This document shows, piece after piece, positions 11,933 through 61,117 of a stretch of DNA of 64,000 bases. Positions within the stretch are counted from its first letter, which is position 1; each line of letters starts with the position of its first letter. The stretch is taken from positions 1 to 64,000 of the IMG/VR virus record IMGVR_UViG_3300037882_002640; one strand, written 5' to 3'. The notes beneath the pieces are model-generated. The model saw only the letters and a list, made by a program, of their open reading frames with translations, did not search any database and was not told the DNA's origin. Made by a program: the position numbers and the translations under genes. Origin of the DNA: a virus.

Positions 11933-11968
11933 ATTTCTGTAAACTCAAATAACATAAGATATTTGTAT

Positions 11969-21724: not shown

Positions 21725-21725
21725 C

Positions 21726-42013: not shown

Positions 42014-42265
42014 TTAACTATTCTCCACGCGATTTTGTGGACTCGGTCCATATATTCCGTTAGCTGTGGTTAGTAATAACAATACAAACGAGATGACTGT
42101 AAGGAATAGCAATACTCCTAAGTCTTCTTCGCAGTTGTATGTGGTACCGTAAAATGTAGAGGTTAGTCCACACTTACCTTTGGAACAGTCGTATAGATTG
42201 AGCGACAGGGATACACATAATATAATCAGTGCTCCTGCCACTACTAATGCGAGTGCCCTTCTCAT
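42014..42265 (-). CDS. Small two-TM membrane protein
   Basis: Start reassigned to ATG 42265 (ATGA overlap with the upstream gene); two hydrophobic helices around a Cys-containing loop. Confidence 0.55.
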   Translation of the reverse strand: MRRALALVVAGALIILCVSLSLNLYDCSKGKCGLTSTFYGTTYNCEEDLGVLLFLTVISFVLLLLTTANGIYGPSPQNRVENS

Positions 42266-42606
42266 AGTTTTCTTACTATTGTTTCGTATTCCTCTAGTTT
42301 TTTCAGTATCCACTCGTAAGTTCCAGCAAATACTTCAAACACAGGATAACCTTTTCTGTTAGTGTTAATTATCAGTATTGCTGGTAAGTTAGTGTAGGCG
42401 CTTGAAATGTTTAAACTTATGTTTATAGTGCGGGACTGTTCTGACTTATCATTGGTAATAGTTAACCTAGCAAGCTTTTTTTCTAAAGTCAGCCCCTTAA
42501 TTTTCATGTCTTTGGCTAACTTTTCATAATCAATTTGGCGTATCCCCCCTGAAAAAATGACAACCCCAATGCCCACTTTAATCCACTTGTTACTATTTCT
42601 TTTCAT
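42262..42606 (-). CDS. Hypothetical protein, paralogue of 42603-42953
   Basis: 114 aa; ends in TGA within an ATGA overlap. Confidence 0.65.
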   Translation of the reverse strand: MKRNSNKWIKVGIGVVIFSGGIRQIDYEKLAKDMKIKGLTLEKKLARLTITNDKSEQSRTINISLNISSAYTNLPAILIINTNRKGYPVFEVFAGTYEWILKKLEEYETIVRKL

Positions 42607-42953
42607 AATCTACGCAATTTTTGTTCAGTTAACTCCATGACATGTGCGACACTGCGCATAGTTCCATGCACTGCCTTGTATAATGATTGCCCTTTTCTAG
42701 TTACATCAATAACTGCAATATCGGGCAACATGAAAGACCAGCCATTACTTCTAATTTTCATTACGCGAGGTTCGGCACCTTCCACCATCTTTTTCAGTTT
42801 TAGAGTATCCCCAATCTTTTCAAGAAGGAGCCCTCTTTTTTTAAGATCTTCGCAAAGTACAGCAAATTCAGCTTCACTTTCTATGGCTCCCCCCACTATG
42901 AGCAACCAATTACCTATTTTGTACCATCTTTTGACTATAATTTTACCTTGCAT
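42603..42953 (-). CDS. Hypothetical protein, paralogue of 42262-42606
   Basis: 116 aa; ends in TGA within an ATGA overlap. Confidence 0.65.
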   Translation of the reverse strand: MQGKIIVKRWYKIGNWLLIVGGAIESEAEFAVLCEDLKKRGLLLEKIGDTLKLKKMVEGAEPRVMKIRSNGWSFMLPDIAVIDVTRKGQSLYKAVHGTMRSVAHVMELTEQKLRRL

Positions 42954-43326
42954 TATTAAGATGTTTTAAAATTAAGTTAACTAATTGTGTGTCTTTAGGC
43001 ATACCATCAGGACTGAGGTTAGACTTAGGTAATTTCTTTCTAAGCCTACTAAGTATGATGTAATCTCTAAATTTCTTATCCCCCAATATGACTGAGCCTA
43101 AGGCATCTAACTTCCCTTTCTCTTCCTCGTACACTACGATTTCCTCAGGAGATAATTCTATCTTACCAGCCTGATGTAGTATGAGGTACTTGGATGTTAC
43201 TACTGGAGATAGGTTTTGCTTCTCTAGTTCCTCTAAAAGTTTTCTATTGTTTGGATTAGACATTAGCCACACGTATGTGGCTAACAGTATAATGCACAAA
43301 CTAAGTAAGGCTACTAGGGTTTTCAT
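42943..43326 (-). CDS. Hypothetical protein with N-terminal membrane anchor
   Basis: 127 aa; MKTLVALLSLCIILLATYVW. Confidence 0.6.
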   Translation of the reverse strand: MKTLVALLSLCIILLATYVWLMSNPNNRKLLEELEKQNLSPVVTSKYLILHQAGKIELSPEEIVVYEEEKGKLDALGSVILGDKKFRDYIILSRLRKKLPKSNLSPDGMPKDTQLVNLILKHLNNAR

Positions 43327-43553
43327 TAGAAGGGTAAAGGATTATCTGCCTCTTCATAATACTGAACGCCCCCACGAGTACCGCTGGGCAAAGATATAAT
43401 GAAGTCTTGATTTTTTGGAATCTCCATATCAGCAGCAGGTACAAGCGTTATCCGCTCATCTATGCTTTCTGGGTAGAATTCTTGGACTAACGCCCCTACA
43501 AATTTTCCAGTAAGGTCAAACAAATGACCTTCTTCGTTTAAATACAAATTCAT
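43326..43553 (-). CDS. Hypothetical protein
   Basis: 75 aa, translationally coupled at both ends. Confidence 0.55.
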   Translation of the reverse strand: MNLYLNEEGHLFDLTGKFVGALVQEFYPESIDERITLVPAADMEIPKNQDFIISLPSGTRGGVQYYEEADNPLPF

Positions 43554-43750
43554 CTTTTTTTATCTTTGTTATGTATGGCGTGAAGGGCAGAATACCATAC
43601 AAGTAGAACAAAAGTAACTACTAAAGTAAGGATTAACACCCCTGAACTTTTTATTAGTTTTATCACCCTTATAAACTCTTTTGAAGTTACAAAAGTTATA
43701 ATCAAATTTACAGTGATAAATATTAATATTAGTAGGACTAGCAGAATCAT
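43550..43750 (-). CDS. Small two-TM membrane protein
   Basis: 66 aa, very hydrophobic; TGA stop in an ATGA overlap. Confidence 0.55.
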   Translation of the reverse strand: MILLVLLILIFITVNLIITFVTSKEFIRVIKLIKSSGVLILTLVVTFVLLVWYSALHAIHNKDKKR

Positions 43751-44410: not shown

Positions 44411-44443
44411 AAAAAAGGGCCAGTACTTAAATGTACTGGCCCT
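44411..44443 (-). terminator. Intrinsic terminator ending the replication operon
   Basis: 11-bp stem AGGGCCAGTAC / GTACTGGCCCT, T-run on the - strand, 10 nt after the 44454 stop. Confidence 0.8.
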
Positions 44444-44453
44444 AGGTTAGTGA

Positions 44454-44903
44454 TTAGGTTCTTCTTTTTACAATGAGACGCATAGCTAAAAATATTATTC
44501 CAGCTATATCCGCATTCCCTTTCGGGAAGTCTTCCTTTACGAGTTTAGACATTTTCATTCTAATCTCTCCCTCAGTTAGGATGTTGATTGATCCAATCTT
44601 GTCCTTGTGCTTATTATATAACTCTTTGAGGAGTTTAAGGTGTGAGGTGTAGACTTCATCTGTTGTTTCAGTCTTGCCTTCAGGTTTAACTGAGGCATTT
44701 TTTCGTAATTCCGCAAGTTGCTCTGTAGTGATTGCTAATTTATCACAGCAGAACTTTTTAAGCCCTTTATCGTTCACTTCTTTTAGTAGTGCTAGTGCTC
44801 TAGTGGTTTGGGCATCCGTTGGAACTTCAACTTTTTTAGCCTCTGGTTTAGGCTCTGGTTTAGGTGCTGGTTTGCGTCCAAGCAGTGAATCCATTAAACT
44901 CAT
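44454..44903 (-). CDS. Hypothetical protein
   Basis: 149 aa, Lys/Pro-rich N-terminus. Confidence 0.55.
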   Translation of the reverse strand: MSLMDSLLGRKPAPKPEPKPEAKKVEVPTDAQTTRALALLKEVNDKGLKKFCCDKLAITTEQLAELRKNASVKPEGKTETTDEVYTSHLKLLKELYNKHKDKIGSINILTEGEIRMKMSKLVKEDFPKGNADIAGIIFLAMRLIVKRRT

Positions 44904-45357
44904 ATTTTTCTACTGTTAAATCAGGTATGCTCCAGACTTCTCCTGAAGGATTTAGTGTAATATCAACTCCCTTTAAAGCCCAGTACTCGACCATCGCAGG
45001 GTCTGCATCAAATATCAGCCTATTAGAGTATAGAGGATGGGTGGGGTTCCTAGGAAAGTGTTTGTCCACATAAGTCCTGTCGACTTGTGTGTATTTACCC
45101 TTAATAAAGGGTTCGACAACCTTCTTATAGTCACCCTCGCTTATAGTGAACGTATAAACGGCTTTTTCCCCGTCTCTCTGCATGTTGACGAATGTGGGGG
45201 CAGTAGAGAGTTTGTTATGTGTTTGTTCATCGAAAGTACTATATACTACCTGTAAGGTGTTACCCTCACCAATATAAGTATTTTCAAATGTTTCTGTGGT
45301 TAATCCACTAACTCCAATGAGTGGAGTCAGGAAAGCTGATGTTTTATTGTACGCCAT
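44860..45357 (-). CDS. Hypothetical protein adjacent to the exonuclease
   Basis: 165 aa; FIKGKYTQVD and EVWSIPD motifs; operon packing. Confidence 0.6.
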   Translation of the reverse strand: MAYNKTSAFLTPLIGVSGLTTETFENTYIGEGNTLQVVYSTFDEQTHNKLSTAPTFVNMQRDGEKAVYTFTISEGDYKKVVEPFIKGKYTQVDRTYVDKHFPRNPTHPLYSNRLIFDADPAMVEYWALKGVDITLNPSGEVWSIPDLTVEKYEFNGFTAWTQTST

Positions 45358-46357
45358 CGAACACGTCTAGTTTTATTACCCCTCCTGAATCGAAGAGATA
45401 CTTGGGCATATCCCAGTAGTCGTTACTGCTATGCCATAGGTAGTCGTCTAATAAGCCCTCTATACCTGGGTATGTCCTGGTGCCTATCTTTCCCCCCTTC
45501 AGACCAGCTAAACGATCGTTGGGGGAAGTGACGAATATTATTGCAGATCTTGTCGATTTCACATTTGTTTCTGCGACTATGAAAACAAAGTCGAGAAGTT
45601 TATATCCTTCCTCTAGTAAGTGCTTTATTGGGGACTGCCCACTGAGCAGCGCTTGCTCATAGAATGCACATTGTCTATAATATCCAAAGGAAAGGAAGGA
45701 ATCTGGAAAATCAAGCACAGATTTGCCTGTTGTCTTTAAATCAAAGGGCTGAATGGTTTTATCAATGTGATTAATTCTAATCCCATCTAATAAAGCTTTA
45801 CATTCAACACCTTTGAAGTCAAAATAAATATCCACCTGGTGCATTAATTCATCCCCATACTCTGACAGTTGAAAGTAACCAATTGTGGGGGGGTTTGATA
45901 GTAGTAGTTCTTTAGCTTTACTTACTGAAGCCATCATATCCTTGGTTAGGAGGATACGCTCATCCTTACTACGCACCTCGTTATAGTACGCTACAGCACT
46001 ATGATCATTTCAGAACATCCCAATAACCCTTGTTAAGGAAATTTTATATCCCGATTTATTGTAGGCTTCTTCATAGTCTTCTTTTTGAGACATCGGGGAT
46101 ATACCTTCGGGTAAGGCGTTAACAAAATTAGCCATGAAGCTAGTCGGCTTTTCTATATCCACTACCCTAAAATCTTCCTCTCAACGCTCTGGTGAGGTTA
46201 GAAGACAATCCACTGCTGCGCCTACACTAAAGAAGGATTTCTCCTCTTCCACTATTACCCCATCCATCTGAAGTTTCATGTAGCGGGGATTTTGTAGCGC
46301 TGAGAGCAGGGAGTTTGATACCCTCTTGGTTTGGAAGTATTGTTTTATCTTGTCCAC
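45344..46357 (-). CDS. PD-(D/E)XK exonuclease (DUF3799/RecE-like); needs two TGA=Trp readthroughs
   Basis: GTG start; YFQTKRVSNSLL, GAAVDCLLT, CKALLDGI, PFDLKTT, YYRQCAFY; in-frame TGA at 46181-46183 and 46010-46012. Confidence 0.8.
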
Positions 46358-46724
46358 CTAGTTCTTTTATGATTTCTATACATTCGTCTAATTGTTTATT
46401 GTTCCTAGGCATTAATAATGTATAAGGAGCACCTAAGGTGTGGAGCATATGTTTAAACAATTTCCACCTCAAATCGAAATCAGGGCGTCTATGCCCCTTT
46501 ACCTCCATTATCCAGTTACTACCCACAAAGTCTGGTTTATAGGTTATTGGCAAGACCAATTTCCTTTTCTTTACCAATTGCCTACCTCTTCCTTCGTAAA
46601 CATCTCCTTCAAAACTGAACTGAGGCGAAAGAATTATACTCACAGGTTCGTAAGTAAAACTTATATTCGCCTCAGTCAGTTTGTCTCATGCCCTATCTTC
46701 CAAGGGGGATCTCAATTTTTGCAT
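46227..46724 (-). CDS. Endonuclease/resolvase (T7 endonuclease I/DUF1064-like); TGA=Trp at codon 13
   Basis: MQKLRSPLEDRA*DKL...FTYEP...TYKPDF...MEVKG...LRWKLF; TAATG-coupled start; TGA 46686-46688. Confidence 0.75.
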
Positions 46725-47413
46725 TACTTTAATGACACTGGACCTCTTAGTGCCCCAGTATTTTCAATCTGCTCTACTGCTTCTTCTACCGCGTCCTCGA
46801 CAATTACTTCTGCTATAGCCCCCACTATTCTATCTTCCATGGCGTTTTTTACAATGTATGGAATCAACTCTTTAGGCACTTCGCCTATTTCCAGAGTATT
46901 GGCATCCACCACTGAGTACCCTCCATTCGGGGCTTTAGCAAGTACAACCACCGCTATTGCTAGGTCTAAAGCCCTGGCCACGCCCATAGCTGTTTTTGCA
47001 GCGTGCGGATTCACTTGTTCGTGATTCACTACCCCATGTTTAACGTAGTTCGTAGGGTCGCCCAAGTACACTTTTCCTTGGGAAGCTGCTGCAGGACATA
47101 CTGTGACAGAGGTTACGGTTTTAGGATTAACATTCGCCTGAATGATTGACCCTGGGGTTTCAGCGTGTTTACCAATGGAGGTTAACTTCTGTATGAAACC
47201 GCCTCCCATTTCGCCGATTTGACCACCTGCCATGATACGTGTACCATACCCACAATCAAGTGAATCTAATTCTCTCTCAGAGAAGGAGTTCCCGACAGGT
47301 AGATAACTTGGCACGTTGAAGCCAGTCTTCTTGGCCAACTCCATCAGCATCAATTTATCTTGTGTCAGTGCTTGGTCCTCTTCGAGGATGTTTAATAGAT
47401 TTTGCATATGCAT
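46724..47413 (-). CDS. Hypothetical protein, possibly a degenerate ATP-grasp fold
   Basis: DKLMLMELAKKTGFNVP, FIQK, ARALDLAIAVVVL, YSVVDAN resemble RimK-type motifs with catalytic residues altered. Confidence 0.4.
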   Translation of the reverse strand: MHMQNLLNILEEDQALTQDKLMLMELAKKTGFNVPSYLPVGNSFSERELDSLDCGYGTRIMAGGQIGEMGGGFIQKLTSIGKHAETPGSIIQANVNPKTVTSVTVCPAAASQGKVYLGDPTNYVKHGVVNHEQVNPHAAKTAMGVARALDLAIAVVVLAKAPNGGYSVVDANTLEIGEVPKELIPYIVKNAMEDRIVGAIAEVIVEDAVEEAVEQIENTGALRGPVSLK

Positions 47414-47421
47414 ATTAACAG

Positions 47422-47715
47422 TTAAAATTTTAAAATTTCAAAATAAATCGTGTCCGCTATGGATTCTCCTTGGTCGTACCTGTAGTACTGCATGGAGTCC
47501 TGCATAATTTCTTGCACTACTATACGCCTATCGAAACGAGTGACCCCGAATTCTACCAGCGTATCCCTCACCACCTCTTCTCCCCTGTCAGAATGCTCTG
47601 TGTAAACTATTGTTGTTTTTTGAGTGTACGTTGTGGGGTTAACAGCATGTACTAAAAGTGCAGTTAAAAAAGCAGTCACGATAATCACGATGATTGCGCT
47701 AATATGGGACTTCAT
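47422..47715 (-). CDS. Membrane-anchored hypothetical protein
   Basis: 97 aa, N-terminal TM. Confidence 0.55.
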   Translation of the reverse strand: MKSHISAIIVIIVTAFLTALLVHAVNPTTYTQKTTIVYTEHSDRGEEVVRDTLVEFGVTRFDRRIVVQEIMQDSMQYYRYDQGESIADTIYFEILKF

Positions 47716-48703
47716 AGTTTGAATTTGTTGTTTTTAGCACTTTGGACAAGCGCTTTTTTAAGTAGCGAAATGAAAAGTGGCTTTTCCGCAATTTCACTAA
47801 ATCTGATATGTCCTTCGCTGCATATAAGAACATTAGTTTTAAACGATATTCTCCGCTCAATCTGTGTCCATGCTTAAGACCGCTCTCATCGTTATCATAC
47901 AACACTACGATATGTTCAAACCTTTCTTTCAAATTGTTGAATAAATCCTCAAAAATCCCATCTCGATAGCCCATACCCTCTCCATTAAACGAAATCGCAG
48001 GAATCCCCATTTCATAGAGAACCATCACATCCTTCATAGACTTTGTAACTATTAGAAGTTTGCCCTTTTTAGGGAGTTGCTGTAAACCAGCTATGTCGTC
48101 TATAGACGAATTGCCTCTTCATTTCTTAGTCTTATCTGGACTCAATGGCCTATATAATTTGATTCTTCCTGATGGAAAGTAATAAGCAAAAATTGGATTG
48201 TCGGTAGTCGCTCGAAATTGTATTTTCTTATTTCTGTACACGCTCTGGACGCCATGTACATTAAACTTCTTTAGAGTCTCTGGCGTGATCCCAAACAGGG
48301 AAAAGTATGGGTGTAATTTTTCGGAAACTACTACATCAAGCTCCACATCCTCTTCCTCCAACTTGCTTACATTTACAGCCTTAATCAAGTTTCGATCTTC
48401 TCTTATTTTCTCCAACGCATGTGCATAAGTGAGGTTGTACTTGCACCGAACTATTGATGCCCACGAGTAGTGCACTCCAGTCGCAAAGTCATGAAAGAAC
48501 AAGGTATCATTTTTACTGTAGTAAAAACCGCAACTAGGATTATTATCTTTCCTTAGTGGATTGCGGAAAAGCACACCCAATTTTATCTCTAGACCTAAAT
48601 AGAAGCTAAGAATTTGCTCCTGAGTTAAGTCCAGGTAGGTTTTGGTTGTTATTATTCAGTCTTTAGCTCTGAATTGTAGTGATTGGTTCGTATGGTTCGA
48701 CAC
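47699..48703 (-). CDS. dnaG: DNA primase (TOPRIM); TGA=Trp readthrough
   Basis: NPLRKDNNPSC..FHDFATG; KTKK*RGN (TGA 48119-48121) joins in frame to GLQQLP..IVTKSMKDVM..LYDNDESG. Start uncertain: GTG 48703 needs a second TGA (48656-48658), otherwise a non-ATG start near 48655. Confidence 0.8.
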
Positions 48704-48938
48704 TTGATTTTGTTATTTCTACTGTATTTAATCTCTTTGTTTCCATAAGATAACACTCAATTTGCCATATTGGGCAGATGTACGGGGACACTACTCGTAT
48801 CCCCGTACCACCTACTTTTTTGTTTAGACTGTTAACTCCTGAATAGGAGAACCTTACGACTACAAATTCATTGATTTGCTCTTGAACTACTTGTATTATC
48901 TCCTCGCTGTTCTTCTTTAAGAAATCTGATACTTTCAT
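48663..48938 (-). CDS. Hypothetical protein
   Basis: 91 aa ORF in the operon. Confidence 0.45.
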   Translation of the reverse strand: MKVSDFLKKNSEEIIQVVQEQINEFVVVRFSYSGVNSLNKKVGGTGIRVVSPYICPIWQIECYLMETKRLNTVEITKSSVEPYEPITTIQS

Positions 48939-49093
48939 ATAGCGTGGCTATTGGTGGGTAGAATTTGCGGACATAAACATCCTTTCTATTCACCCTAGTG
49001 GAATGATGCATTTTTAATACTAGAAACAGGAAAATTCCAGCTTCTCGTGTACTCAGCCCCAGACTTCTCATAGTTTCATTCCACACCTCAAGG

Positions 49094-49681
49094 TTAGAAT
49101 GGGTGGTCAGGGGCTTCTTCTTTTTTACCGTCTGAGTTGCTACTTGCAATGTCTTTGAGTTCTTTTTGTGAAAAATTTAAAGTTGAGGGGACCCCTTCTG
49201 TGTACAATTCCATATACCCATTGTATGCTGGTATGTTAGCATACACAGTGGTTCCACCCTCTTTCTTTTTGGTTACTTTAGGTACAACCTTTAGATTTAC
49301 CTTTGTCCCTTTAAAGCCGTTGGTTATAGTGATTGCTTTTTCTGCAAATTCCGTGTACGTTTTCGCGGTTAATTTGTCTATGCTCGCTTCGTCCCCTACT
49401 ACACTTAGTACGTAGGTCAGTGCGACCACATTTCTGTGTTGTTCCCGTTCAAGCGCTTCGGCGGGAGTTTCCATCACTTTATCAGCCTTCTCGAAAGGCA
49501 TTGCGCCAGTTGGTTTGAACAACCGTTTACGCGCAAACCGTTTTTCTGTATCTATAAATGTGATATCTATGGAGTCTCCATCCTTTACCAGTCCGCTAAA
49601 GGTTACACCTTCGTGTATCCCTACTGGTATACTACCTACCGACGCTAGGTCGCTCTCGAAAATTAATTTTGCTTGAAACAT
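49094..49681 (-). CDS. Putative single-stranded DNA-binding protein
   Basis: 195 aa; IPVGIHEGV start, charged tail ending PF; follows the AAA recombinase-like gene. Confidence 0.55.
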   Translation of the reverse strand: MFQAKLIFESDLASVGSIPVGIHEGVTFSGLVKDGDSIDITFIDTEKRFARKRLFKPTGAMPFEKADKVMETPAEALEREQHRNVVALTYVLSVVGDEASIDKLTAKTYTEFAEKAITITNGFKGTKVNLKVVPKVTKKKEGGTTVYANIPAYNGYMELYTEGVPSTLNFSQKELKDIASSNSDGKKEEAPDHPF

Positions 49682-49685
49682 TGTT

Positions 49686-50345
49686 TTATCCTTCTTTTTC
49701 TATAATTGTGTCCACAACGAACTTCAAGTCGTTGGGAATTCTTGGTGGGAATACTCCCATCACAGACCTAGCCTCATTTATTCCGTTAGAATTGGTCTGT
49801 AATTCATAAAGTGGCTCTCCAGCGTCAAAAGTTAGATCTGTATAGAGATTGTATGTGAGAAATGAATTCAGGTTAATCTTAGTGAGCTTCTTGCCATTAG
49901 TTTTTATCCTTAAGCATTGCGCACCATTCATCTCGTAAGCCTCTACATGAGACATTACGATTACTGTAAAATCTTCCCGACTCAAGTCTCTAATTGCTTT
50001 AAACAGATCATAGACCTCGCTTGCTAAGTCAGCCCATTGGTCTCTTGATGGGTTCTTGAGTATCTCCATCTCTGCATTTGTCATTAAAGTAGAGATGGTG
50101 TCAATAACTACTACCTTAACTTCTGGCACCTTATCATGGATACTCTTTACAAAAGTCTCAGCTTGCTTTGCAGTGCTGACCTTAAAGTAATTTTTATTTG
50201 CAGTATTGTAATCTTTCTTTCACCCCACCCAAGCCATTCCTTTGCCATCGCCATCTAGGAATACTGTGCTTTTAGGATCTAACGTCATTACTCCTGTGGT
50301 CTTCCCTGTTGATGGGAATCCCGAAATCATTATTAATCTACTCAT
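49686..50345 (-). CDS. AAA_24/Sak4-like ATPase; TGA=Trp readthrough
   Basis: MSRLIMISGFPSTGKTT...WVG*KKDY...VVVIDT...VMSHVE; the Walker A motif lies upstream of TGA 50220-50222. Confidence 0.85.
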
Positions 50346-51336
50346 TTGGGTTTCTCTCGCTTATTTGGTTCTTATTGAATTGCTCTATACATGCTATCAC
50401 TACTGGAGTTCCAAACCGCTCCTTAATAACATGCAGATATATCATGGATTTATTTAGAGTGGGGTGTATTACTGGAAGTCCATGTGGAAACCCATCTCTT
50501 GGGGGCCCATAGTATGCACCCATTCCTGAAACCACCACAGGCCTATGAAGTATCACAACATAATCAGAGCATTGATACGCTGAAGATGATGCGAATAAGT
50601 CATTCTGGGTGGGGTAGTGTAATTTAGGGTTTGATACCCTCTCGTTACTTTGTATATCACGATTAAGTTGAGACAAAAGTACGAACATTATTTTGATATT
50701 TTCGTGTGAAAAATGTTTTTTTAATTCCACGAGTGATAAATAAAGTTCGTCCACCCTTTGCTTTTCAGCCTCTCCTTTATTGTTTTTAGTTAGGAGGGTG
50801 TGATCAATAGTCACTACTAATCCTTTGTTTTCACTTTGGAGATTTCTAACCTCAGCAAAATTAAGTATTGTCTGAGTAATATCTCTCGCTGTACCAACCT
50901 TATCTACATAGAATATAGGCAGCAAAGCAATATTCTCAACTTCATTCTCAATTTTGTTGTATAAATCCTGTGATATTGGAGTTTCAGAGGAATATATTTC
51001 CTTTAGGCCTACACCTAAACTGCTAGATAAATCTCTAGCAATTTGGTCTTCCATGCGCATCTCGAACTCAAACGAAAGTATTTCAAAATTCTGGTCTTTG
51101 TTCAACGCAATGAAATCTCTTCGCAACTCTGATAAGAATGTGGACTTACCACTTCCTGGCAAGCCCGCAACTGTTGTTATCCTTCACCAATCAAGGCCAT
51201 TCAAGAAAGTCTTGTTAAACTTACTTTTAGAGGTCTTAAGTGACTTTATCTCCCCTGTTCGTAGAGAATGGATAAATTTCTTGGAAGAGGTAGCTGCATG
51301 AGATATGTGTCTTACATTAAGCGAGATCTGTTCCAT
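50338..51336 (-). CDS. dnaB: DnaB-like replicative helicase; TGA readthrough
   Basis: SLKT..KFN..LNGLDW*RITTVAGLPGSGKS, FEFEM, IDH, LSQLNR; TGA 51184-51186. Confidence 0.85.
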
Positions 51337-51856
51337 AGGTTACCGTTCTTGCTGGGGCTGCCACTTCGTAATCTAGAAACGTTTTAGACTTCAGAAAACT
51401 ACTAGGCCCCTTCATATATGTAACTTTGTTTTCAGTATAGGAAGTTTTCTTTAGATATTCATAGTAGGCTTTAAGCCCTTCTATTATCACATCGAGGTCA
51501 TACCTTAACCTCGCTTTAGTAAACTCTAGTTTAGATTCATCTCGATTTGTCCGTATGACTCTAGTTGACTCAAATCTGCCAAAACTATTGTCAAGAGGGT
51601 ATGCCTTTCAGAACTTCTCGAACTCATCCTCATCAGATTCTACCCCACCTTCTAATTCTGTTACTAAAACATAGAAAGTGTTGGTGAGGTTACCAGCCCT
51701 ATCTAAAAACCCTAAAGTTTTCATTTTATTCATACTCTCTGTTGTTGGGTAGTTACCCCAATCCTCGTCTAAATACAGAGAGTAAAGATACGCAAATTCT
51801 TCTAAATCAAGAAGTAATTTCGTAACCGTTTTGTATAATTTATTAGTAAAATACAT
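51317..51856 (-). CDS. Replication initiator/replisome organiser-like protein; TGA=Trp
   Basis: FEKF*KAYP is the FxxFWxxYP motif; the frame stays open about 96 codons to TAA 51317, overlapping the DnaB start; TGA 51608-51610. Confidence 0.75.
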
Positions 51857-52109
51857 ATTCTTTTATGCCTTCTCGACCATTCGTTATATGGTCGAGTTCC
51901 GCTCTTTTTAGATCATCTATTGCTTTACCCCACGTTTCCCACAAATCTTTAGTCTGTTGGGAACCGTTGCTGGAGACCAGTACTTTCCGTTTACCTCCCT
52001 TCAAATAGTAATATATCTGAACATTCCATAAACCCTCATTTCTGTAGACATGTATTTTGTAATCCTTGTAGTTGAACTTTATGTTATCTTTGATATTTTT
52101 TTTTGCCAT
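51843..52109 (-). CDS. Hypothetical protein
   Basis: 88 aa, operon packing. Confidence 0.5.
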   Translation of the reverse strand: MAKKNIKDNIKFNYKDYKIHVYRNEGLWNVQIYYYLKGGKRKVLVSSNGSQQTKDLWETWGKAIDDLKRAELDHITNGREGIKEYVFY

Positions 52110-52111
52110 AC

Positions 52112-52339
52112 CTAGTAACGAAATAATATTTTTTCCAGGGATTCACATTCATCCTGTATATTGTAGTACAGAGAGAAATTTATGTCATACTCCCTAATAG
52201 ATTTAGCTTCATCCTTTTTTCCTGGGTAGGAGCCTACAAAAAAGTAACATATCACAGTGTTTGTATTGTTACTTGGCCTGTACTGGCTAGTTACCTGCAC
52301 GCAAAACCTACCAATATGGATAACTTTTATCTCCTCCAT
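52112..52339 (-). CDS. Hypothetical protein
   Basis: 75 aa, TAATG coupling. Confidence 0.5.
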   Translation of the reverse strand: MEEIKVIHIGRFCVQVTSQYRPSNNTNTVICYFFVGSYPGKKDEAKSIREYDINFSLYYNIQDECESLEKILFRY

Positions 52340-53388
52340 TAGAAAGGGTAATCCAAATCAAAATCAATTTTTCTTTGTAAATTGAAATCAGGTTTAATAG
52401 TTTCAAGTTTTAGCACTTTGGTTACATTATGGTTATGAAATACCATCTTGTAGATGTAGTCTCTTTTGTTGTTAAAGACATAAACCACTTTGTCTGCGCT
52501 TCTTTTTACTATGATGGGGGCCTTACCTTCGTGATTGCAGATCTTGCAAAGGTATGACTGGCCTTTTAAGTCCCAGTCTAGTTGTTCCCTGCTAAGCATC
52601 AAGTCAATTTCTTGTACTATATCACATTCACAGGTGAAGTGATTATACCTTTGAGTAACTCCTATACCTATAGTGTATGGGCTCATTCTTGAGTCGTGTG
52701 CTCTTTGGATCGCTGTACATTCACCACAAAGATATGTATAATCTGCGATGACTGCAAATTTTCTCCAACTTTTTTCAGAGTTATCAATGAGATAATCTTC
52801 GTTGCAGTGTGCGCACACTCTGCTGTAACTCCTAAAGGAAAAGAGGTTCTCTCTTTTCCTACCGCTTGTATTTTTGATAAATGTTTCACAACTATCACAA
52901 ACTTTAACTCTGCCTCCTGTAGTTTCGTTGTTCAAGTTAGAGTATTCCCTAGATACTGGTATATTTACTATTATCGAAAACATAGGCATGGCAGTTTCAC
53001 AGAGGATACAGTACTCACTAAGGTCCATACCATCATAATATTTAGCATGTGAGTAGTAGTTACCTAATCGTGGAAGACCATAATTATGTATCATAGTATA
53101 CCTGTCCAAGATTTTATGATTCTTTCTTTCCATGACTTTCTTTTTTTCTGTTTTGATGCTATTTTGACATTCTTCGCAGGCAAATATGTGAAGGTTAAGT
53201 TCATTATACTCACTTGTAGACATAGAGTGTGTTGTCCTCACTTCATTTACGTGGAAGTAACACTCTCCCATTCTCGCCCCTGCCGTGACATTAGGCAACC
53301 ATGTGTCATCAACAAACCTAAAGTCATGTTCAATGTACCGTCTTAGCCTCCAAGGGTATCTGGGGAGGTCGGAATTGATTTCAACCAT
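52339..53388 (-). CDS. Multi zinc-finger (CxxC) protein
   Basis: 349 aa; CEEC, CILC, CDSC, CAHC, CGEC, CEC, CKIC. Confidence 0.6.
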   Translation of the reverse strand: MVEINSDLPRYPWRLRRYIEHDFRFVDDTWLPNVTAGARMGECYFHVNEVRTTHSMSTSEYNELNLHIFACEECQNSIKTEKKKVMERKNHKILDRYTMIHNYGLPRLGNYYSHAKYYDGMDLSEYCILCETAMPMFSIIVNIPVSREYSNLNNETTGGRVKVCDSCETFIKNTSGRKRENLFSFRSYSRVCAHCNEDYLIDNSEKSWRKFAVIADYTYLCGECTAIQRAHDSRMSPYTIGIGVTQRYNHFTCECDIVQEIDLMLSREQLDWDLKGQSYLCKICNHEGKAPIIVKRSADKVVYVFNNKRDYIYKMVFHNHNVTKVLKLETIKPDFNLQRKIDFDLDYPF

Positions 53389-54500
53389 ATAGGTTTAATT
53401 TTTAAAGTTTTAGTTTTTACCCATTTTTCTTCCCTTGTTCCTTCAGTGTAAAGATTAAAGAATAAGGCTTTCTTATCCTTACCTAACCTCACTGTACGCC
53501 CAAGAGCTTGGGTAAATACCAGTAACGATGAGTCTCCTGACACTGAAATGCCAGCATCTAGACTAGGAATGTCTAACCCTTCATTTAGAGCATCAACACC
53601 TATTAACCTACTTACTTTACCAGTTTCCATCCTTTCAAGGACCTCTGCTTTTGCTTTCTTGCTCATCTTAGAATGGTAAACTGCTGAATTAGGTAGTAGT
53701 TTTCCGCAAATTTCAGCTTCTTTAATACTTTTGAAGAAGATTATCCATCTTCTCCCTGGGTATTGATTAACCAACTTTATAACGGCGTCCATCTTGTTAC
53801 CGTTACTTCATACCGCTTGCTTCCGCATAGTCATTGCCCCCCAAAATTCCTTACTAGCACTACTAACCTCCTTATCAGGATGATTTCTATAGTGTTTAGC
53901 GTTCTCGAAGGGGGATGAATATTCCAGGTTTTTTTCTTTGGCTAATCTCGCTAAATTCTTAGACGCTTGAATTAATTTAGCGTTGAACACTGAGTACCTC
54001 TTCCCATTCGACTTATCGTTGGGTAAGGCTATGTTGTATACCGTGAAATCACTTATTGCCCCATCTTCTAGGGCTTCATCAACTGTTTTCTCCTTTGCTA
54101 TTGGCGCAATGCTCACCATAAAATCCAGGTACTCTAGATTAGATGGGGCTGTTGCTGTTAACAGTAAGGTGTAGTTTCTGCTTATGTTGGAGTATAAACT
54201 CCTGTAGGCTGGGGAAAGGCTTCGGTGCGCCTCATCAACTATGAGTAGATTAACGCTTTTCTTCTGCTTGTACGCTGAATTAATTGTTGTAACCTCAGCC
54301 TTTCCCCCCACCACTTTTTTTCATGCCTCAACTAAATTTACTCTAGATGAGACGATCAGTACTTCTCCTCCAATAAGCTCTACTGCCATTTGACCGACCC
54401 TGGTCTTACCATATCCTGTCGGGAGAAGCACTGTGACGTGTTTATGTTCTACTAATTTATTTACCGAATCCAATTGCTCGGCATCTCTGATGGTTTTCAT
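53343..54500 (-). CDS. SF2 DExH helicase; two TGA=Trp readthroughs
   Basis: LPTGYGKT, NLVEA*KK (motif Ia Trp), VDEAH, LTAT, LNEGLDIP, QALGRTVR; TGA 54321-54323 and 53808-53810. Confidence 0.9.
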
Positions 54501-55357
54501 TAGTTATGGGCATTACATATTTTATATTTAGCCGATATTTGGGTATTACACCCAGACACCTGGCATTCGTGTGTAGTTAACTTACAGCCTCTGCATATTT
54601 CGCCTCCTGAAGATACCCGACTTGTTGCGCACCTAGCACAATAATGTATTTTTCTGCTGTCGCAATTGTCACATAAACCTTCACGAGTCAAGTCATATCC
54701 TCCAGGTAGCCTAACATATGCGCCACATCTCAAGCAGTTATCTGCTGAATCCTTTTCACATGTATTGCAGAGAGTCTTGGTGTAGTCATTACTCTCGAAT
54801 CTGCACTTACAATTAGAGCAAACATTTGAATGCTCTAGACAGAACTTAGATCCATTTATGGTGTGTTCACTGCATATTAAGCAGTAATTTGGGAAAATAC
54901 TCCCACAATGATCGCATTCTCTGTCTTTACCTAAGTATACGTCACACTTTGGGCATTTCCTGTTACAAGACTTGCATGTAGTATCGGCCAATAAATCATC
55001 CCCACAACCGGGGCATATACCAAAGGTACAACCTCTGCATATATTATCCGAATTTATTTTCTTAAACAAATTACACTTAAAACATTTACCTAGTTTAGGG
55101 CCGTTATCAACGCTTACACAATCATGGACAGTCGTAGAAGGGTATACTTCCGCACAAGTTTTGCACGTTACATGATGCTCTTTTAAGCAGTCAATACACA
55201 TTGCTTTTGCAACTGCTCTGTCTTCTGCAGGGCTTACCCATACACCCACTGTTAAATTGGCCGTCTTACCACACTCTTGGCAAGGACTGTGTATACACAT
55301 GTCGCATAGTTCTTTAGTGGAACTAATAAGTGTATCACATTTAAAGCATGTGTTCAT
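54500..55357 (-). CDS. Very Cys-rich tandem zinc-ribbon protein
   Basis: 285 aa made almost entirely of CxxC...CxxC/CxxH units. Confidence 0.65.
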   Translation of the reverse strand: MNTCFKCDTLISSTKELCDMCIHSPCQECGKTANLTVGVWVSPAEDRAVAKAMCIDCLKEHHVTCKTCAEVYPSTTVHDCVSVDNGPKLGKCFKCNLFKKINSDNICRGCTFGICPGCGDDLLADTTCKSCNRKCPKCDVYLGKDRECDHCGSIFPNYCLICSEHTINGSKFCLEHSNVCSNCKCRFESNDYTKTLCNTCEKDSADNCLRCGAYVRLPGGYDLTREGLCDNCDSRKIHYCARCATSRVSSGGEICRGCKLTTHECQVSGCNTQISAKYKICNAHN

Positions 55358-55446
55358 ACAAACACACTGCGCACCTAAGGTGCACTTCTTTACCTTCCTG
55401 CCAAAGTGTGGCGACGACCTATTTATACATGTGAATGTACGGGTAA

Positions 55447-56457
55447 CTAGTTTGGGAGTACTATACCTAGGCCACCATCAAGGATGGAATCCTCAAAGAG
55501 AGCTCTAACAGCGTCGACTTCGGGTTTTTTACCCTCGTTAATCCTGTTGCTGATTTCAGCAAATGTTAGCATTAGTTTGATTGCAGATTCTTTTTCTGCT
55601 TCATCATCAGATGACGAGTATCTATCCTTTGCTTCCACCACCTCTGCGTATATCTTGTCTGTTTTGGTCTTATCAGTTATACCGATATACTTAAGCAAAT
55701 TAAGCACAACAGATTTATCCTTGTCTGGATTCTTGGGCTTATCATCTCCGCTACTAGCAGGGGTTGTACTTTGCTGCCCTTTATCATCCTTCATGTAGTT
55801 CTCGCTATTAGTTCCTAGTGAGTAGAATATCTCCACCACTAAGATTAAATAGTGTACTACTATAGTGGCGATCATTAAGATTATTGGAGCAGCTAGTATT
55901 GCCCAAGGAGAGGTGTAGACCCTTAATCCCATTTGCAAGCACTCTTGCACATACTCCTGTTTATTAGTGAACGGGGATATCCATGAGTAAAACAATCCTA
56001 GGTGTGGAATTTCTCCCAAACCCGCAGCCATTATGGTCAAGTTGAAGTAGGGCGGTAGAAACAGCCCCAAAAAAGAAACCCCCATGATAATGACGTTTAT
56101 CAACATTGTCCCGAATTTCGACTTAATAAAACTGTCATAGATTGCTGCCATGGTGGAGGCAATAATCATACCAGATACAAACTGGTAAAATCCTAGGATT
56201 ATATGAGTCATAATCCTAGCTATAGGATTAATTTCCACCTTAGCCCCCGCTAAATGGGTAGTGGCCGCAACAAGACATTCCCCCACTGTGGCTATCAGTA
56301 GGATGACTAGCAACCACCCCGAAAAATCATTTCGGAATTGGTTCAGAATTAAATCTGTCAGTTTTTCATCCGGGTTTGAGTTTTTTAGGCGGATGAGTAC
56401 TATGGCCACGCCAATAATCCCGCAGACAGCGAGAATTGAAATTAATAGATCCGACAT
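55447..56457 (-). CDS. Multi-pass membrane protein
   Basis: 336 aa, about 5-6 hydrophobic segments plus a soluble C-terminal domain. Confidence 0.65.
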   Translation of the reverse strand: MSDLLISILAVCGIIGVAIVLIRLKNSNPDEKLTDLILNQFRNDFSGWLLVILLIATVGECLVAATTHLAGAKVEINPIARIMTHIILGFYQFVSGMIIASTMAAIYDSFIKSKFGTMLINVIIMGVSFLGLFLPPYFNLTIMAAGLGEIPHLGLFYSWISPFTNKQEYVQECLQMGLRVYTSPWAILAAPIILMIATIVVHYLILVVEIFYSLGTNSENYMKDDKGQQSTTPASSGDDKPKNPDKDKSVVLNLLKYIGITDKTKTDKIYAEVVEAKDRYSSSDDEAEKESAIKLMLTFAEISNRINEGKKPEVDAVRALFEDSILDGGLGIVLPN

Positions 56458-58305
56458 TTATTTTGTCCATATTGTAGAGTGAGAAGTGTCACTCTTTGGT
56501 GAGCAATTTTTTAGTAAGAGTTTCCCAGCCTGCATCATGGCGGAGCTAACTACTTGCTTTACTTTTTCCACATCTTCATCCCTGCACCTAATAACCCATT
56601 CATCATGGATTAAGATACATATCTCGAAATTGTGGATACTGCTTAATTTTCTTAAGAGATTACCAGCTAGTTTAATCATATCCGCTCCAGTTGACTGAAT
56701 TGGGTAATTAAATGCTTTTCTCCTTACTTGGGATTCAAACTTATTAATCCATTCCTTCATCGCTTGGTTCTCGTAGCCCCTTGCAATTAAGTCCGAATAA
56801 ATTTTCTTAGCTTTTAGGTACTCGTCATGCCCTTCAAATAGTATTCTCCTTTTAGAGTAATTGTTGGTTATTACGTAACCATCTATTAGGGCCTGTGCGG
56901 CCTTCTTTTCCAATCCCTCTATCAGAGTAGGGTACAACGCTTTAACGTCCTCTACGGCCTTTCTAGCCACCTTCATAGGCAATCCGAATTGACTTGCAAT
57001 CTTTCCTGGACCACCACCATACAGAATTGTAAATACGATGGTTTTCGCAATCTGCCTATGTAGTGATGGAATCATATTCTCACCCCAGACTACACTTGCA
57101 GTTTTCAAATGCAAATCAACTCCTTCCTTAAACCAGTCAAGAATTTTAGTCTCCCCATATAAATCCGCAGCTATTAACACCTCTTGTGAGGAGTAGTCAG
57201 CAGTTACAAAGGAATAACCTTCTCCTGCTTCAAAACAGTTGCGGTACTCATTCATCCTAGGAATTTGCTGCATATTAGGATTAGACGATGAAGTTCGTCC
57301 CGTGTCCACCATTTGCATGTAACTACTATGGATTTTGCCAGTAAGTGGGCTAATCTTTGATAGAAATTTCTCACCATATGATGTCTTAAGTTTCATTAAC
57401 TTCTTATACTCCAAATACAAATGTACAAGTTCATTATCAATCTTAGACAGGACAGTGGAGTTTACCCCCTCTTTTATTTCACCTGTTTTCTTATCTATAA
57501 ACGAAACTGATACACCAGTATTTTTCATCAAATCTAGAACTTGCTTTGGCGAGTTCCAGTTGATATCCCCATACACCGAAAGTTTTTCCAGAGACTTTTC
57601 AATTTCATTTTCCTGGTGCTTAATTAAAGCATTTCATTTATCGCGGTTAACATCCACACCATTAAGTTCCATGTCCGCTAAAACCAAAATAAATTCCTTT
57701 TCGACTAGGTTGTAGACATCCAGTAACCCGTCTTTTTCCATTTTAGCATGTAGGACTTCATATAGTGTGTACGTGTATTCTGTGTCTTTTGCAGCATATG
57801 CTGCTTGCTGTGGGGTTAGCTTCCCACCAAATGTTCGTCGGATGTCCTTAGTTACAGTGTAATCAAATAAGTCAGTCTGTAGCGTATACGCATACTTGTC
57901 AACATATTCCCTAGCCATACTTTCTAATGAAAAAGTACCTTTAGGGTTTGTTAAACCTAACTTAATTAACTGCCCCATAACCATGGTATCATCTACATCA
58001 TTATGTACGTATCCTGTGTGTCTTTTTATCACAGAATAATCGAATTTGCCATTATGGCAAATCCACCCTATCTTTTTTAACTTCCCTAGGAGCATCTTAG
58101 AAAATCCTTCCTGAACATCCACTAGTATAGTATAATCTTTACCTGTTATCTGTACAGTAAGAATCTCTTTGGCCTCATCCCAAGTAGTTTCCGTGTCCAG
58201 GGCTACCTTATCTTTTATTTTACTACAAGCCTCAACTAAACTAATATTAATAAAGCCGTCAATCTTATAGTCCCCTACGAAATACCTAGTAAATTTCTTT
58301 GCCAT
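56458..58305 (-). CDS. polA: Family A DNA polymerase with 3'-5' exonuclease; TGA=Trp readthrough
   Basis: ExoI ALDTET, ExoII HNGKFD, ExoIII YAAKD; MELNGVDVNRDK*NAL (TGA 57634-57636); motif A ADYSSQE, motif B RQIAKTIVFTILYG, motif C IHDE. Confidence 0.92.
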
Positions 58306-58591
58306 CGATTTCTAAAAATCTGTCTATTTTGTAAGATGAGCTCGTAAACTCATCCATATTCCTTACCACTCCCTTACTAGATACCACCCTACGTATCTTC
58401 CTAATGCAGGTGAAATTATTTAACTTCACCTTTCACTTATCGTGTTGATAGGTAACTTGGTATTTGTCAGGCACCTCATCTAGGATGAAGGGAAGGCCCT
58501 TACCCATGTATTCCACAAGTTCAGCCTCCCCTTCGTAACCTAAATTTTGATAAGGGTCAAGGTACACTGGTACCATCTGCCCTACCTTCAT
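58286..58591 (-). CDS. Hypothetical protein absent from the ORF track; TGA=Trp
   Basis: 101-aa frame MKVGQMVPVYLDPY...HDK*KVKL that fills the gap exactly; TGA 58433-58435. Confidence 0.6.
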
Positions 58592-58593
58592 AC

Positions 58594-59184
58594 TTACATT
58601 TCTATATGTATGTGACTTCCTGTAGCGCTGGGGTTGTAAAATATATAAGGCTTACATTCCTCGCGTGTAGCGTAAGTTTCCACCTCTTTACATCCTGGCT
58701 TGCCTTCGATGTACATAGTTAGCCCATGTTCTTGTAGCCATTTCTTACCAGATTCTGATACTAAATAATCTACAAGGTCTTGAGACAAATCTAAGTCGCA
58801 GGCTTTGCCATGTTCATGTTCTGACTTTGTCCCCCAATTCCTACGAAGTGAGGTTATCATTGCCTTGGGACCACTGTACTCCCCCAGTGCTGTTTTTAAG
58901 GCACTACAAATATCCGTGTTTACACCTCTATACAGTACAAACCCTAGAAAGTTAGCTTTGCAGCTACCGAATTTTTTACTTTTCGGATTCTTTCATGGGT
59001 GTATTTTCAGTAGTGTATCTAGTTGTAGTTTAATGGAGTCTGTTACTCCACCATACTCTAAAACCTCCATTTTAAGGTGTTCAAGAGCATCACGTTGGTC
59101 GTCGATAATCCTATTTTGTTTTATTTGAAAACTAATAAGTGCTGCGACCATTATACCCTGTAGTGCCAATCGTATGTCATTCAT
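58594..59184 (-). CDS. Membrane-anchored M15-type zinc peptidase; TGA=Trp
   Basis: ORFs 58993-59184 and 58594-58860 are one frame across TGA 58993-58995; ITSLRR, SEHEHGKACD, HIHI motifs. Confidence 0.7.
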
Positions 59185-59229
59185 ATGTTTGCTGTCTTGT
59201 ATTTACTAGTGCTCTAGTTCCAAGCACTT

Positions 59230-59517
59230 CTAGTTAGCGGGGTATAAAAGCTTGTAAGCTTTGTTTACTACAAAGAACTCCGCCACTTGGGCACCTGTAT
59301 TTGGATGGTTACGAGGAACAAACTTTTCGACTATTACGCCGTCTGATTTATTTCCGTTCCTATCGTAATACAAGTTAACGCCCCTTTTATCAGTAGTTCA
59401 TGTCAGTCCCACCTCGCTGTATGACACATTTAGCGCCATTCCAGTCCTGGCGGACCTCAAAACTACCAATCCACTGTTACTTAAGTAAGTAACAGCTCGC
59501 TCATCAATATTGTTCAT
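59230..59517 (-). CDS. Hypothetical protein absent from the ORF track; TGA=Trp
   Basis: 95-aa frame MNNIDERAV...GLT*TTDKRG that fills the gap; TGA 59398-59400. Confidence 0.55.
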
Positions 59518-60079: not shown

Positions 60080-60239
60080 TAGCCAGTTTCTTTAGGCGAG
60101 TCAATAACTCATACAAAAGTATGGATTTATTTTGACTGCACAAATTTATTTCCTTAAAGAAATTTTTTTTTGTGTGTTGAGGAGCAAATACTCTATGCAT
60201 GCCCTCTTCTTCTGCTATAAATATACCTAGGCGGTTCAT
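60066..60239 (-). CDS. Small hypothetical protein
   Basis: Start taken at ATG 60239 to avoid a long overlap; uncertain. Confidence 0.35.
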   Translation of the reverse strand: MNRLGIFIAEEEGMHRVFAPQHTKKNFFKEINLCSQNKSILLYELLTRLKKLANDQK

Positions 60240-60246
60240 TGCCAAT

Positions 60247-60564
60247 TCAAGCTCCCCGTAGGTACGCTGCCTGCACTTGAATCTCTTGCCTAAGCTCTTC
60301 GATTTTGCGGGTGTATACAGTGATTTGTTTTTTGGCCCTGCCATACTTGATTTTTCTTTTATTATTGTACACTGCAATATCTTGGTACTTACGAACAACC
60401 CTACGTGCTTCTACAATGATTCCATGGAACCTGTTGTGTGCTGTGTTTACTTTTTCGTAGAGAAAAACTTCTTCCTTTTCATCAGGGGTGGGGAAATCGG
60501 GGAGTGGGTCAATACCGAGGTCTTCAAACCCCTCCCCTTTCAACCATCTTCTTTTTGCGTCCAT
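60247..60564 (-). CDS. Hypothetical coiled-coil protein
   Basis: Start ATG 60564; ends at TGA 60247 (would extend to TAG 60193 if read through). Confidence 0.5.
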   Translation of the reverse strand: MDAKRRWLKGEGFEDLGIDPLPDFPTPDEKEEVFLYEKVNTAHNRFHGIIVEARRVVRKYQDIAVYNNKRKIKYGRAKKQITVYTRKIEELRQEIQVQAAYLRGA

Positions 60565-60574
60565 GGTTAGTGAA

Positions 60575-61117
60575 TTAATAGTTAATGATTTGCCCCACTT
60601 TTGGGATTTTTGGAATGGCTTCACTAGGAATCCCTAATGCCTGTAAGACTTTTCGGGTTTCTCCAGGCCTTACTACATGCGTCTTAGTAACCTTCCTTGA
60701 ATTGGATGGTAAAACGGCTGTGTACGCTATGTTACCTAGGTAAATTACTTGATTTGTTGTGTCAACCCGAACCGAATATATTTCCACCACTTTTCGTGGG
60801 AAATGATTTATTCGATATCCAACAGCCCCATCCCCTAGTGAAAATATATCCCCTTGTGATATATGAACCGTATCTAAATCGACAACAATATTCTCTGGGG
60901 TAATAAGGAACTTCTTAGGTTCCTCCACTATGGATTGATTTTCTAATATGAACTTGGTGAAGACTTCCACCTCACACTCTTCGCAGAACCCTGTAAGTTC
61001 TGGATTAGTTTGAGGAGTTGTAAACTCCTGTGGCAGGGCTTCGTTGCCACCGCATCTGGTGAGCAGTATAAGTAGTAATACCAGAATTGTTCTGGCGTAA
61101 TAAACAATTGGTTGCAT
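60575..61117 (-). CDS. Putative lipoprotein with C-terminal LysM-like domain
   Basis: ILVLLLILLTR-CGG lipobox-like; C-terminal HVVRPGET...PKVGQII. Confidence 0.55.
   Translation of the reverse strand: MQPIVYYARTILVLLLILLTRCGGNEALPQEFTTPQTNPELTGFCEECEVEVFTKFILENQSIVEEPKKFLITPENIVVDLDTVHISQGDIFSLGDGAVGYRINHFPRKVVEIYSVRVDTTNQVIYLGNIAYTAVLPSNSRKVTKTHVVRPGETRKVLQALGIPSEAIPKIPKVGQIINY

Follow-up and report, generated by a model that had tools for sequence, protein, structure and literature searches.

Phages that read a stop codon as sense have been found to place their recoded codons in late genes (Yutin 2021, PMC7886860; Borges, 10.1101/2021.08.26.457843; Mgcod, 10.1101/2022.06.29.495998; zeta-phage, PMC12386605), with the replication genes in these four studies being standard, dual-coded or variably recoded, and the leading idea is that stop-codon recoding delays late and lysis genes up to the point at which the phage has altered the code of the cell. 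The opposite layout is described here for the virus record IMGVR_UViG_3300037882_002640, a contig of 94,810 bp of which the first 64 kb (64,000 nucleotides) constitute the window that was analysed: a minus-strand block of replication genes, including those for a family A DNA polymerase (PolA), a primase, and a DnaB-like helicase, contains in-frame TGA codons that are best read as tryptophan (Trp), and the late genes contain none. The literature yielded no report of a phage with late genes free of the recoded codon but with a replication operon that depends on recoding.

Three uses of TGA in one genome

Within the replication block, TGA accounts for 13 of the 52 Trp codons, mixed with 39 TGG, and terminates none of the 22 genes. 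The late arm (35 genes, counted over 80881–93735 of the genome and the window part 22–41878) has TGA at 0 of 121 Trp codons and likewise lacks TGA stops (Fisher's exact test vs the block, 5e-8). Mutation bias does not explain the partition, because out-of-frame TGA is equally frequent in the two arms (2.9% vs 2.8%). The block is the sole part of the 94.8 kb in which TGA serves as a sense codon. It is the stop of at least 11 other minus-strand genes, lying in an ATGA stop/start overlap in nine of them, and the tails beyond these stops are short and of poor coding score. Such tails are 3–28 codons long in the unit that lies downstream of the block (42014–43611), where the ATG of the next gene overlaps the TGA. 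One of these TGA-ended genes, with a phage-lysozyme domain (minus strand, genome 70332–71177; L001 6332–7177), has its TGA in an ATGA overlap and has no internal TGA; it sits among small minus-strand genes, far from the virion arm. A preliminary description of the window had proposed that TGA is sparse and interspersed with TGG and that it is distributed opposite to the late-gene bias of published phages. Both proposals hold.

All 13 in-frame TGA codons are found on the minus strand at the positions given to them previously (Table 1) and are distributed over 11 of the 22 genes. Translation with table 4 joins the table 11 fragments into single open reading frames (ORFs) that close with TAA or TAG and lie directly against, or overlap, the gene that follows, as had been described. 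The peptide contexts quoted earlier, FEKF[W]KAYP, VG[W]KKDY, NLVEA[W]KK, NRDK[W]N, and KK[W]RGN, are correct, as is the count of eight TGG and one TGA in PolA. Profile matches span the TGAs in PolA, DnaB_C, AAA_24, the helicase domains, the exonuclease VIII-like protein, the primase, and the initiator, and a coding signal is present on either side of each TGA, with no in-frame TAA or TAG in the block, so that only TGA interrupts the frames. Because 11 genes cannot be completed unless UGA is read through, replication depends on UGA decoding, in agreement with the earlier claim; without it PolA, the primase, the DnaB-like helicase, and eight more genes would not be whole. The gene names assigned at that time are supported by profiles and matches, except for the ‘M15 peptidase’ (58594–59184), which has no Pfam or PHROGs match. 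Two further in-frame TGAs in the longest table 4 ORFs, at 48656 (codon 16) and 52143 (codon 2), are probably upstream of the true starts.

The TGA codons are not artifacts of a single assembly. Contigs from independent freshwater studies show no differences over 46181, 53808, and 51184, and a riverine strain with ~5% divergence has dense differences across 45812–46415 and none at 46010 or 46181 (among the 40 of 202 differences listed). Sequencing or assembly error was rejected on the basis that the same sequence occurs in contigs of three independent studies, an assembly chimera on the basis that relatives are syntenic across both arms, and pseudogenes on the basis that the frames are broken by TGA only, with a coding signal on either side. 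The riverine strain (run X1) additionally has an extra A behind 47413, in a short spacer between two genes.

Tryptophan at TGA and the context of the codon

The PolA column corresponding to residue 224, where the window has TGA, is occupied by W in 23 of the 25 homologues that cover it and by F in the other two. Syntenic relatives (metagenome loci L004–L007 and virus records G001 and G002) could be aligned at 12 of the TGA sites and carry TGG or TGA at nine, Tyr at two, and Gly or Phe at one (Table 1). The TGA itself is shared with G001 and G002 at 46010, 46181, and 46686, and with G001, G002, L007, and L005 at 50220. Viewed from the other side, the in-frame TGAs of relatives mostly stand opposite a TGG in the window. 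The PolA column, the nine sites with Trp codons or TGA, and the pairing of the relatives' TGA with TGG bear out the earlier assignment, and Trp is the best-supported reading of TGA in the block as judged from these alignments. None of the 12 alignable sites has Arg, Lys, or Cys in relatives, which adds to the fit of Trp, and Arg was rejected as the inserted residue because neither Arg nor Lys occurs at any aligned site.

The base after the sense TGAs and their position within genes are both biased. The following base is A in 11 of the 13 cases and G in two, never T or C (binomial p 3e-4; Fisher's exact test vs TGG, 0.0016), and A at this position (+4) also predominates in relatives (7/9 in L005 and 14/26 in G002). 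tRNA-Trp reads UGA most readily when A follows, and suppression is lowest with U at +4 (PMC5289835). All 13 sense TGAs fall in the first 60% of their genes, with 19 of the 39 TGG codons located beyond that point; it counts against this proportion that the cut-off was picked after seeing the data, and the rank test (Mann-Whitney p 0.0075) is the fair figure. The sense TGAs of L005 are likewise biased toward the 5′ end (p 0.0076). Neither the A context nor the 5′-proximal placement would be expected of a fully reassigned codon, and both fit competition with termination, from which we infer that suppression of UGA is incomplete and competes with release factor 2 (RF2). Under such competition an early abort costs little, and truncated proteins that are almost finished are avoided. 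As an account of the biases, a leaky and costly codon that is tolerated where demand is low does no worse than a purpose-built gate.

Table 1. Features of the window, in-frame TGA codons, and the codon or residue of relatives at the aligned sites
Feature	Position	Strand	In-frame TGA	Relatives at the TGA site	Details
Late (virion) arm in window	22..41878	+			17 ORFs including the 5264-aa ORF, all ending TAA/TAG
Bidirectional terminator-like hairpin between convergent arms	41895..41928	.			14-pair stem, T runs on both strands
Separate downstream unit	42014..43611	-			TGA ends in ATGA overlaps at 42262, 42603, 43550
Intrinsic-terminator-like hairpin closing the block	44416..44443	-			11-pair stem, 7 G-C pairs, then T run
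Replication block	44454..59517	-			22 tightly packed genes; stops 15 TAA, 7 TAG, 0 TGA
Exonuclease VIII-like	45344..46357	-	46181, 46010	46181: TGA; 46010: TGA	phrog_412 over residues 5-265, spanning both TGAs
DUF1064 / Holliday-junction-resolvase-like endonuclease	46227..46724	-	46686	TGA	Weak matches PF06356, phrog_190
DNA primase	47699..48580	-	48119	TGG	phrog_12622, E 2e-27
AAA_24 ATPase	49686..50345	-	50220	TGA	PF13479, E 1.5e-11
DnaB-like helicase (DnaB_C)	50338..51336	-	51184	Gly (GGT, four relatives) or Phe (TTT)	PF03796, E 2.9e-19
Replication-initiation-like protein	51317..51856	-	51608	TGG	phrog_270
SF2 helicase	53343..54500	-	54321, 53808	54321: TGG; 53808: Tyr (TAC or TAT)	Helicase_C, ResIII, DEAD
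Family A DNA polymerase (PolA)	56458..58305	-	57634 (residue 224)	TGG	PF00476 DNA_pol_A, PF01612 DNA_pol_A_exo1
Hypothetical	58286..58591	-	58433	Homologue not found	In-frame coding score kept on either side of TGA
Hypothetical	58594..59184	-	58993	Tyr or Ile	No Pfam/PHROG match
Hypothetical	59230..59517	-	59398	TGA (L005) or TGG (L004, L006)	
Gap, candidate promoter region	60080..60246	-			167 nt, upstream of the unit's first gene (ATG at 60079)
Gene directly upstream of the block	60247..60624	-			Ends in TGA; 17-codon tail with negative coding score

The hairpin that closes the block directly follows the stop of gene 44454–44903, and the start codon of the endonuclease gene (46227–46724) lies in a TAATG junction with the gene upstream. 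The gap at the other end of the block holds two TAnnTTTG boxes (the Bacteroidota -7 promoter box), at 60148 and 60121, which are less than 30 nt apart and match the consensus weakly. These boxes show no clear enrichment in non-coding DNA, and a sigma-70 promoter scan was uninformative (55 sites vs 53.8 expected).

Phage affiliation, sister lineage, and tRNA-like genes

The contig ends within a plus-strand gene and is thus an incomplete genome, from which ~4–5 kb of late genes are estimated to be missing based on synteny with relatives. The late arm lies on the plus strand (80881–94810 plus 1–41878) and encodes a GroEL-like chaperonin, TerL, portal, virion proteins, and a 5264-aa ORF (21726–37520); crAss-like phages carry a giant virion-associated RNA polymerase gene in the late arm and a family A or B polymerase in the replication arm. 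The chaperonin gene (plus strand, genome 86669–88237; L002 2669–4237; phrog_5725, E 6e-131) is directly upstream of TerL and contains no Trp codon. The minus strand, from 80675 down to 42014, holds small genes, tRNA-like genes, the lysozyme-domain gene, AAA ATPases, and the replication genes. TerL (phrog_6681; the portal matches phrog_6547) is nearest to those of Cellulophaga phage phi14:2 (33%), Flavobacterium psychrophilum phages, and Bacteroides crAss phages, and PolA is 26–27% identical to the PolA of crAss001 and IAS virus, its closest homologues being P0001 (54%) and P0003 (56%). From these TerL and PolA matches, the phage can be placed with some assurance as a divergent freshwater crAss-like phage. 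Contigs that contain it come from at least three studies of riverine and freshwater metagenomes, and neither a single-protein scan of viral contigs nor a scan of genome contigs with P0001 returned a close relative. The nearest cultured TerL relatives all infect Bacteroidota, a group that uses the standard code (10.1101/2022.06.29.495998), and the host is predicted to be a member of the Bacteroidota; the TGA stops, the avoidance of TGA in late genes, and the context bias also suggest a host with the standard code.

The sister lineage is represented by two records syntenic with the window, IMGVR_UViG_3300042691_037989 (G001) and IMGVR_UViG_3300037189_022865 (G002), with identities to the window of 54% for TerL and 36% for PolA. 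This lineage resembles the window in having TGA at four shared replication-gene sites and in the larger share of TGA among the aligned Trp codons of its replication arm (36% vs 11% in the late arm, p 0.001). It differs in carrying, directly upstream of GroEL, a tmRNA (63 bits) and a tRNA with a long extra arm and the anticodon UCA in a loop of normal form, the extra arm of this tRNA(UCA) ending in a loop that contains CCA, and in having TGA in late genes too, including four in TerL. The window has neither the tmRNA-tRNA(UCA) cassette nor late-gene TGA. Beside its tmRNA and tRNA(UCA), G001 carries a type-P3 twister ribozyme (49.8 bits), a weak pistol match, and a piece of a group I intron inside a split AAA_24 gene region (RNA elements at L167 2352–2600 and 3423–3516, L166 15798–15861 and 18022–18080, and L165 11386–11571).

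A TerL tree, which contains uncultured relatives only and no reference families, places the window as sister to locus L168 and the G002 lineage (100/100 for the clade). The large late genes of L168 lack internal TGA, and no tRNA occurs in its 16.8 kb. Because the TerL TGAs and the cassette are confined to the G002 lineage on this tree, TGA in replication genes is shared and TGA in late genes looks to be derived. More distant relatives (G003–G005) show no gain in coding density with TGA as sense and have no tRNA(UCA), and appear to use the standard code. The choice of TGA or TGG at conserved Trp columns is uncorrelated between the lineages (four shared TGA; Fisher's exact test, 0.16), which argues for near-synonymous drift and not for fixed regulatory sites. 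The reversed polarity of recoding is real and, in weaker form, common to the relatives.

Phage tRNA(UCA) genes have been reported for 15–35% of code 4 phages in published surveys, and no canonical tRNA(UCA) was detected in the 94.8 kb with ARAGORN and Rfam, the latter giving nothing at E up to 0.5 on the window. Neither a tryptophanyl-tRNA synthetase (TrpRS) gene nor a release-factor gene was found in the 94.8 kb, and Pfam scans of 20 further minus-arm proteins identified AAA ATPases and a lysozyme domain and no TrpRS, release factor, or tRNA-modifying enzyme. A single tRNA-like gene carries the UCA anticodon (minus strand, genome 75082–75160; L001 11082–11160; 52 bits vs Rfam tRNA), outside of the window, and is the best candidate for the UGA reader. 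The gene has C-U-UCA in the normal anticodon register within a loop of 13 nt, six more than usual, and the CUUCA pairs with a downstream UGGAG into a long hairpin. Its D arm and anticodon stem match those of a neighbouring tRNA-Met. A pattern scan of viral contigs for the odd anticodon arm gave no match. UGA may instead be read by host tRNA-Trp at UGA-A or by a factor encoded in the missing DNA.

Three other tRNA-like elements are present nearby on the minus strand. A weak match at genome 78424–78502 (L001 14424–14502; 34.5 bits) lacks a D arm and has the anticodon UCU and a long extra arm, and its UUGGAG could base-pair with the UUCUAA of its loop, much like the pairing in the UCA-bearing gene. 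At genome 73763–73846 (L001 9763–9846) there is a long-arm (class II) tRNA with the anticodon UUU and U37, which is unusual for tRNA-Lys. A lone T arm and acceptor 3′ strand at genome ~76925–76955 (L001 ~12925–12955), much like those of the UCA-bearing gene, may represent a tRNA copy in decay or a remnant resembling an attachment site; a split tRNA at ~76.93 kb was rejected, as no 5′ half was found nearby. No hammerhead ribozyme was among the Rfam matches to L001 at E up to 1, a scan that took in genome 79.3–79.8 kb (L001 15300–15810).

Explanations for the layout and known systems

The explanation favoured here, and held to be probable though by a modest degree of confidence, is that TGA is a leaky UGA-Trp codon tolerated in replication genes of low demand. 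UGA would be read as Trp in infected cells, incompletely and in competition with RF2, and a leaky TGA would survive only where a low yield is tolerable or useful, namely in the ~15-kb replication block. The virion arm, which would need high output, would avoid TGA both as sense and as stop, and the other minus-strand genes would keep it as an ordinary stop. The part played by expression level is a conjectural step in this argument. Several observations weigh against it. Site 51184, with Gly or Phe in relatives, is the sole aligned site that is not Trp or aromatic, two TGAs in one gene would be costly in yield if reading is weak, and the residue inserted and the efficiency of reading are predictions from sequence. 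The lysozyme-domain gene, which is presumably late, ends in TGA and misfits a simple rule that late genes avoid the codon, and the absence of TGA from the late arm and of a suppressor holds for the 94.8 kb, with ~4–5 kb of the late arm missing. The candidate UGA reader is itself unusual, as the only UCA-bearing tRNA-like gene has six extra anticodon-loop bases and its T arm, acceptor 3′ half, and A73 match bacterial tRNA-Arg and tRNA-Lys and not tRNA-Trp.

A translational switch was the interpretation offered by the preliminary description, of which the sparse TGA, the Trp assignment, and the reversed layout have stood and the switch itself has not been borne out; it may be regarded as one of two live readings. 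As a purpose-built gate, early TGAs would lock the operon until a phage suppressor accumulates or the host becomes permissive, timing or conditioning DNA replication. That eleven genes are hit, with PolA, the primase, and the DnaB-like helicase among them and every TGA lying early, would suit such a device, as would the recurrence of TGA in relatives of 40–50% protein identity at 46010, 46181, 46686, 50220, and partly 59398, the presence of tRNA-like genes upstream on the same strand, and the appearance of the block as one unit between the gap and the terminator. The gate is nonetheless rather unlikely, given that shared TGA at conserved Trp columns does not exceed chance, that half of the operon genes have no TGA, that the search of the 94.8 kb for a canonical suppressor, TrpRS, or release factor gave none, and that the lineage with a normal tRNA(UCA) has TGA in its late genes too, which looks like drift set by efficiency and not like a replication-specific device. 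A more specific scheme, in which recoding in this clade began in the replication operon and not in late genes, and UGA is read by an unprecedented conditional suppressor tRNA whose UCA is cis-paired with the UGG-containing six-base insert and exposed after processing or a change of state, thereby gating DNA replication, seems quite improbable from what the sequence offers. Alternatively, no phage factor may be involved, with host tRNA-Trp(CCA) misreading UGA-A at a yield of a few percent and the TGAs being relics from the loss of a suppressor cassette. At the readthrough rates typical of E. coli, a gene with two TGAs would have a yield well under 1%, which counts against this account. The bias toward A at +4 is strongest in the window and weaker in the lineage with the canonical suppressor, misreading by tRNA-Trp classically occurs at UGA-A (PMC5289835), the window is without the cassette that G002 has upstream of GroEL, and the late genes are purged of TGA, all of which suit misreading by the host; the TerL tree, however, makes the cassette look like a gain in the G002 lineage and not a loss here, and there is a tRNA-like gene that has UCA in register, which would be a coincidence of ~4 in 64, so that this explanation too is judged unlikely.

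The remaining explanations carry little weight. That TGA encodes another residue (Gly as in code 25, Arg, Cys, or selenocysteine) would find a footing in the Gly of four relatives at 51184 and in the resemblance of the UCA tRNA-like body to tRNA-Arg and tRNA-Lys, but nine of the 12 aligned sites have Trp codons in relatives and none has Arg, Lys, or Cys, and decaying pseudogenes or assembly errors are countered by interruptions that consist of TGA alone, by the identical sequence in three independent studies, and by the coding signal on both sides; these are very improbable. A host that itself uses code 4 (TGA as Trp, no RF2), with the phage following suit, would have precedent in that most table 4 phages in isolate databases infect Mycoplasma or Spiroplasma (PMC11210395). 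It was rejected as the most improbable of the explanations, since the late arm is devoid of TGA, TGA stops occur in ATGA overlaps elsewhere, the context and position biases would be unexpected without RF2, and the TerL relatives infect Bacteroidota with their standard code.

An opposite layout needs a purpose other than delaying lysis, such as dosing or gating replication, or else supports a simpler demand rule by which a leaky codon drifts into genes whose protein is little needed and is removed from those whose protein is needed in quantity. A natural experiment on this rule is offered by the sister lineages, one having a canonical suppressor and late TGA and the other having neither. There is also a practical consequence, as gene calling with the standard code breaks half of the operon and whole-genome code predictors may miss it, the change in coding density being small (0.90 to 0.93).

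Compared with described recoded phages, the window shares TGA aligned with the Trp of homologues and the loss of TGA as a stop (22/22 genes of the block). The concentration of recoding in late structural and lysis genes is absent, with none of the late-arm Trp codons being TGA and the lysozyme-domain gene ending in TGA, and this touches only the pattern of the lysis-timer model and not whether the phage is recoded. Leaky readthrough of UGA-A by tRNA-Trp in E. coli (Engelberg-Kulka 1981, as related in PMC5289835) similarly has UGA-A read as Trp against RF2, and, as far as that account goes, concerns single sites with a minor extended product, whereas the window has 13 sites within essential enzymes. 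The TGA-to-Trp crAss-like phages (Yutin et al. 2021, PMC7886860; zeta-group phage Lera, PMC12386605) have, like the present phage, a genome of ~95–100 kb with its two arms running in opposite directions, TGA in frame where conserved genes have Trp, recoding of part of the genome, and a suppressor tRNA that frequently escapes detection, but their recoded part comprises TerL, structural, and lysis genes and they derive from the gut, as opposed to the replication operon of a freshwater phage. The Agate and Jade gut phages (Borges et al., 10.1101/2021.08.26.457843) likewise combine an inferred standard-code host, TGA dropped as a stop in recoded genes, and recoding of a fraction of the genes. Agate has TGA in structural and lysis genes with standard replication genes, and structural and lysis genes were recoded in every clade examined there, in contrast to the window, whose lysozyme-domain gene is unrecoded and for which no TrpRS or RF1 gene was found. 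The dual-coded phages of Mgcod (Pfennig et al., 10.1101/2022.06.29.495998) match the window in that the code switch follows the switch of coding strand and in that one block is the same under both codes. Their dual-coded block comprises early and replication genes and their single-code block late genes, roles that are exchanged in the window, to which a third set of genes with TGA as a stop is added.

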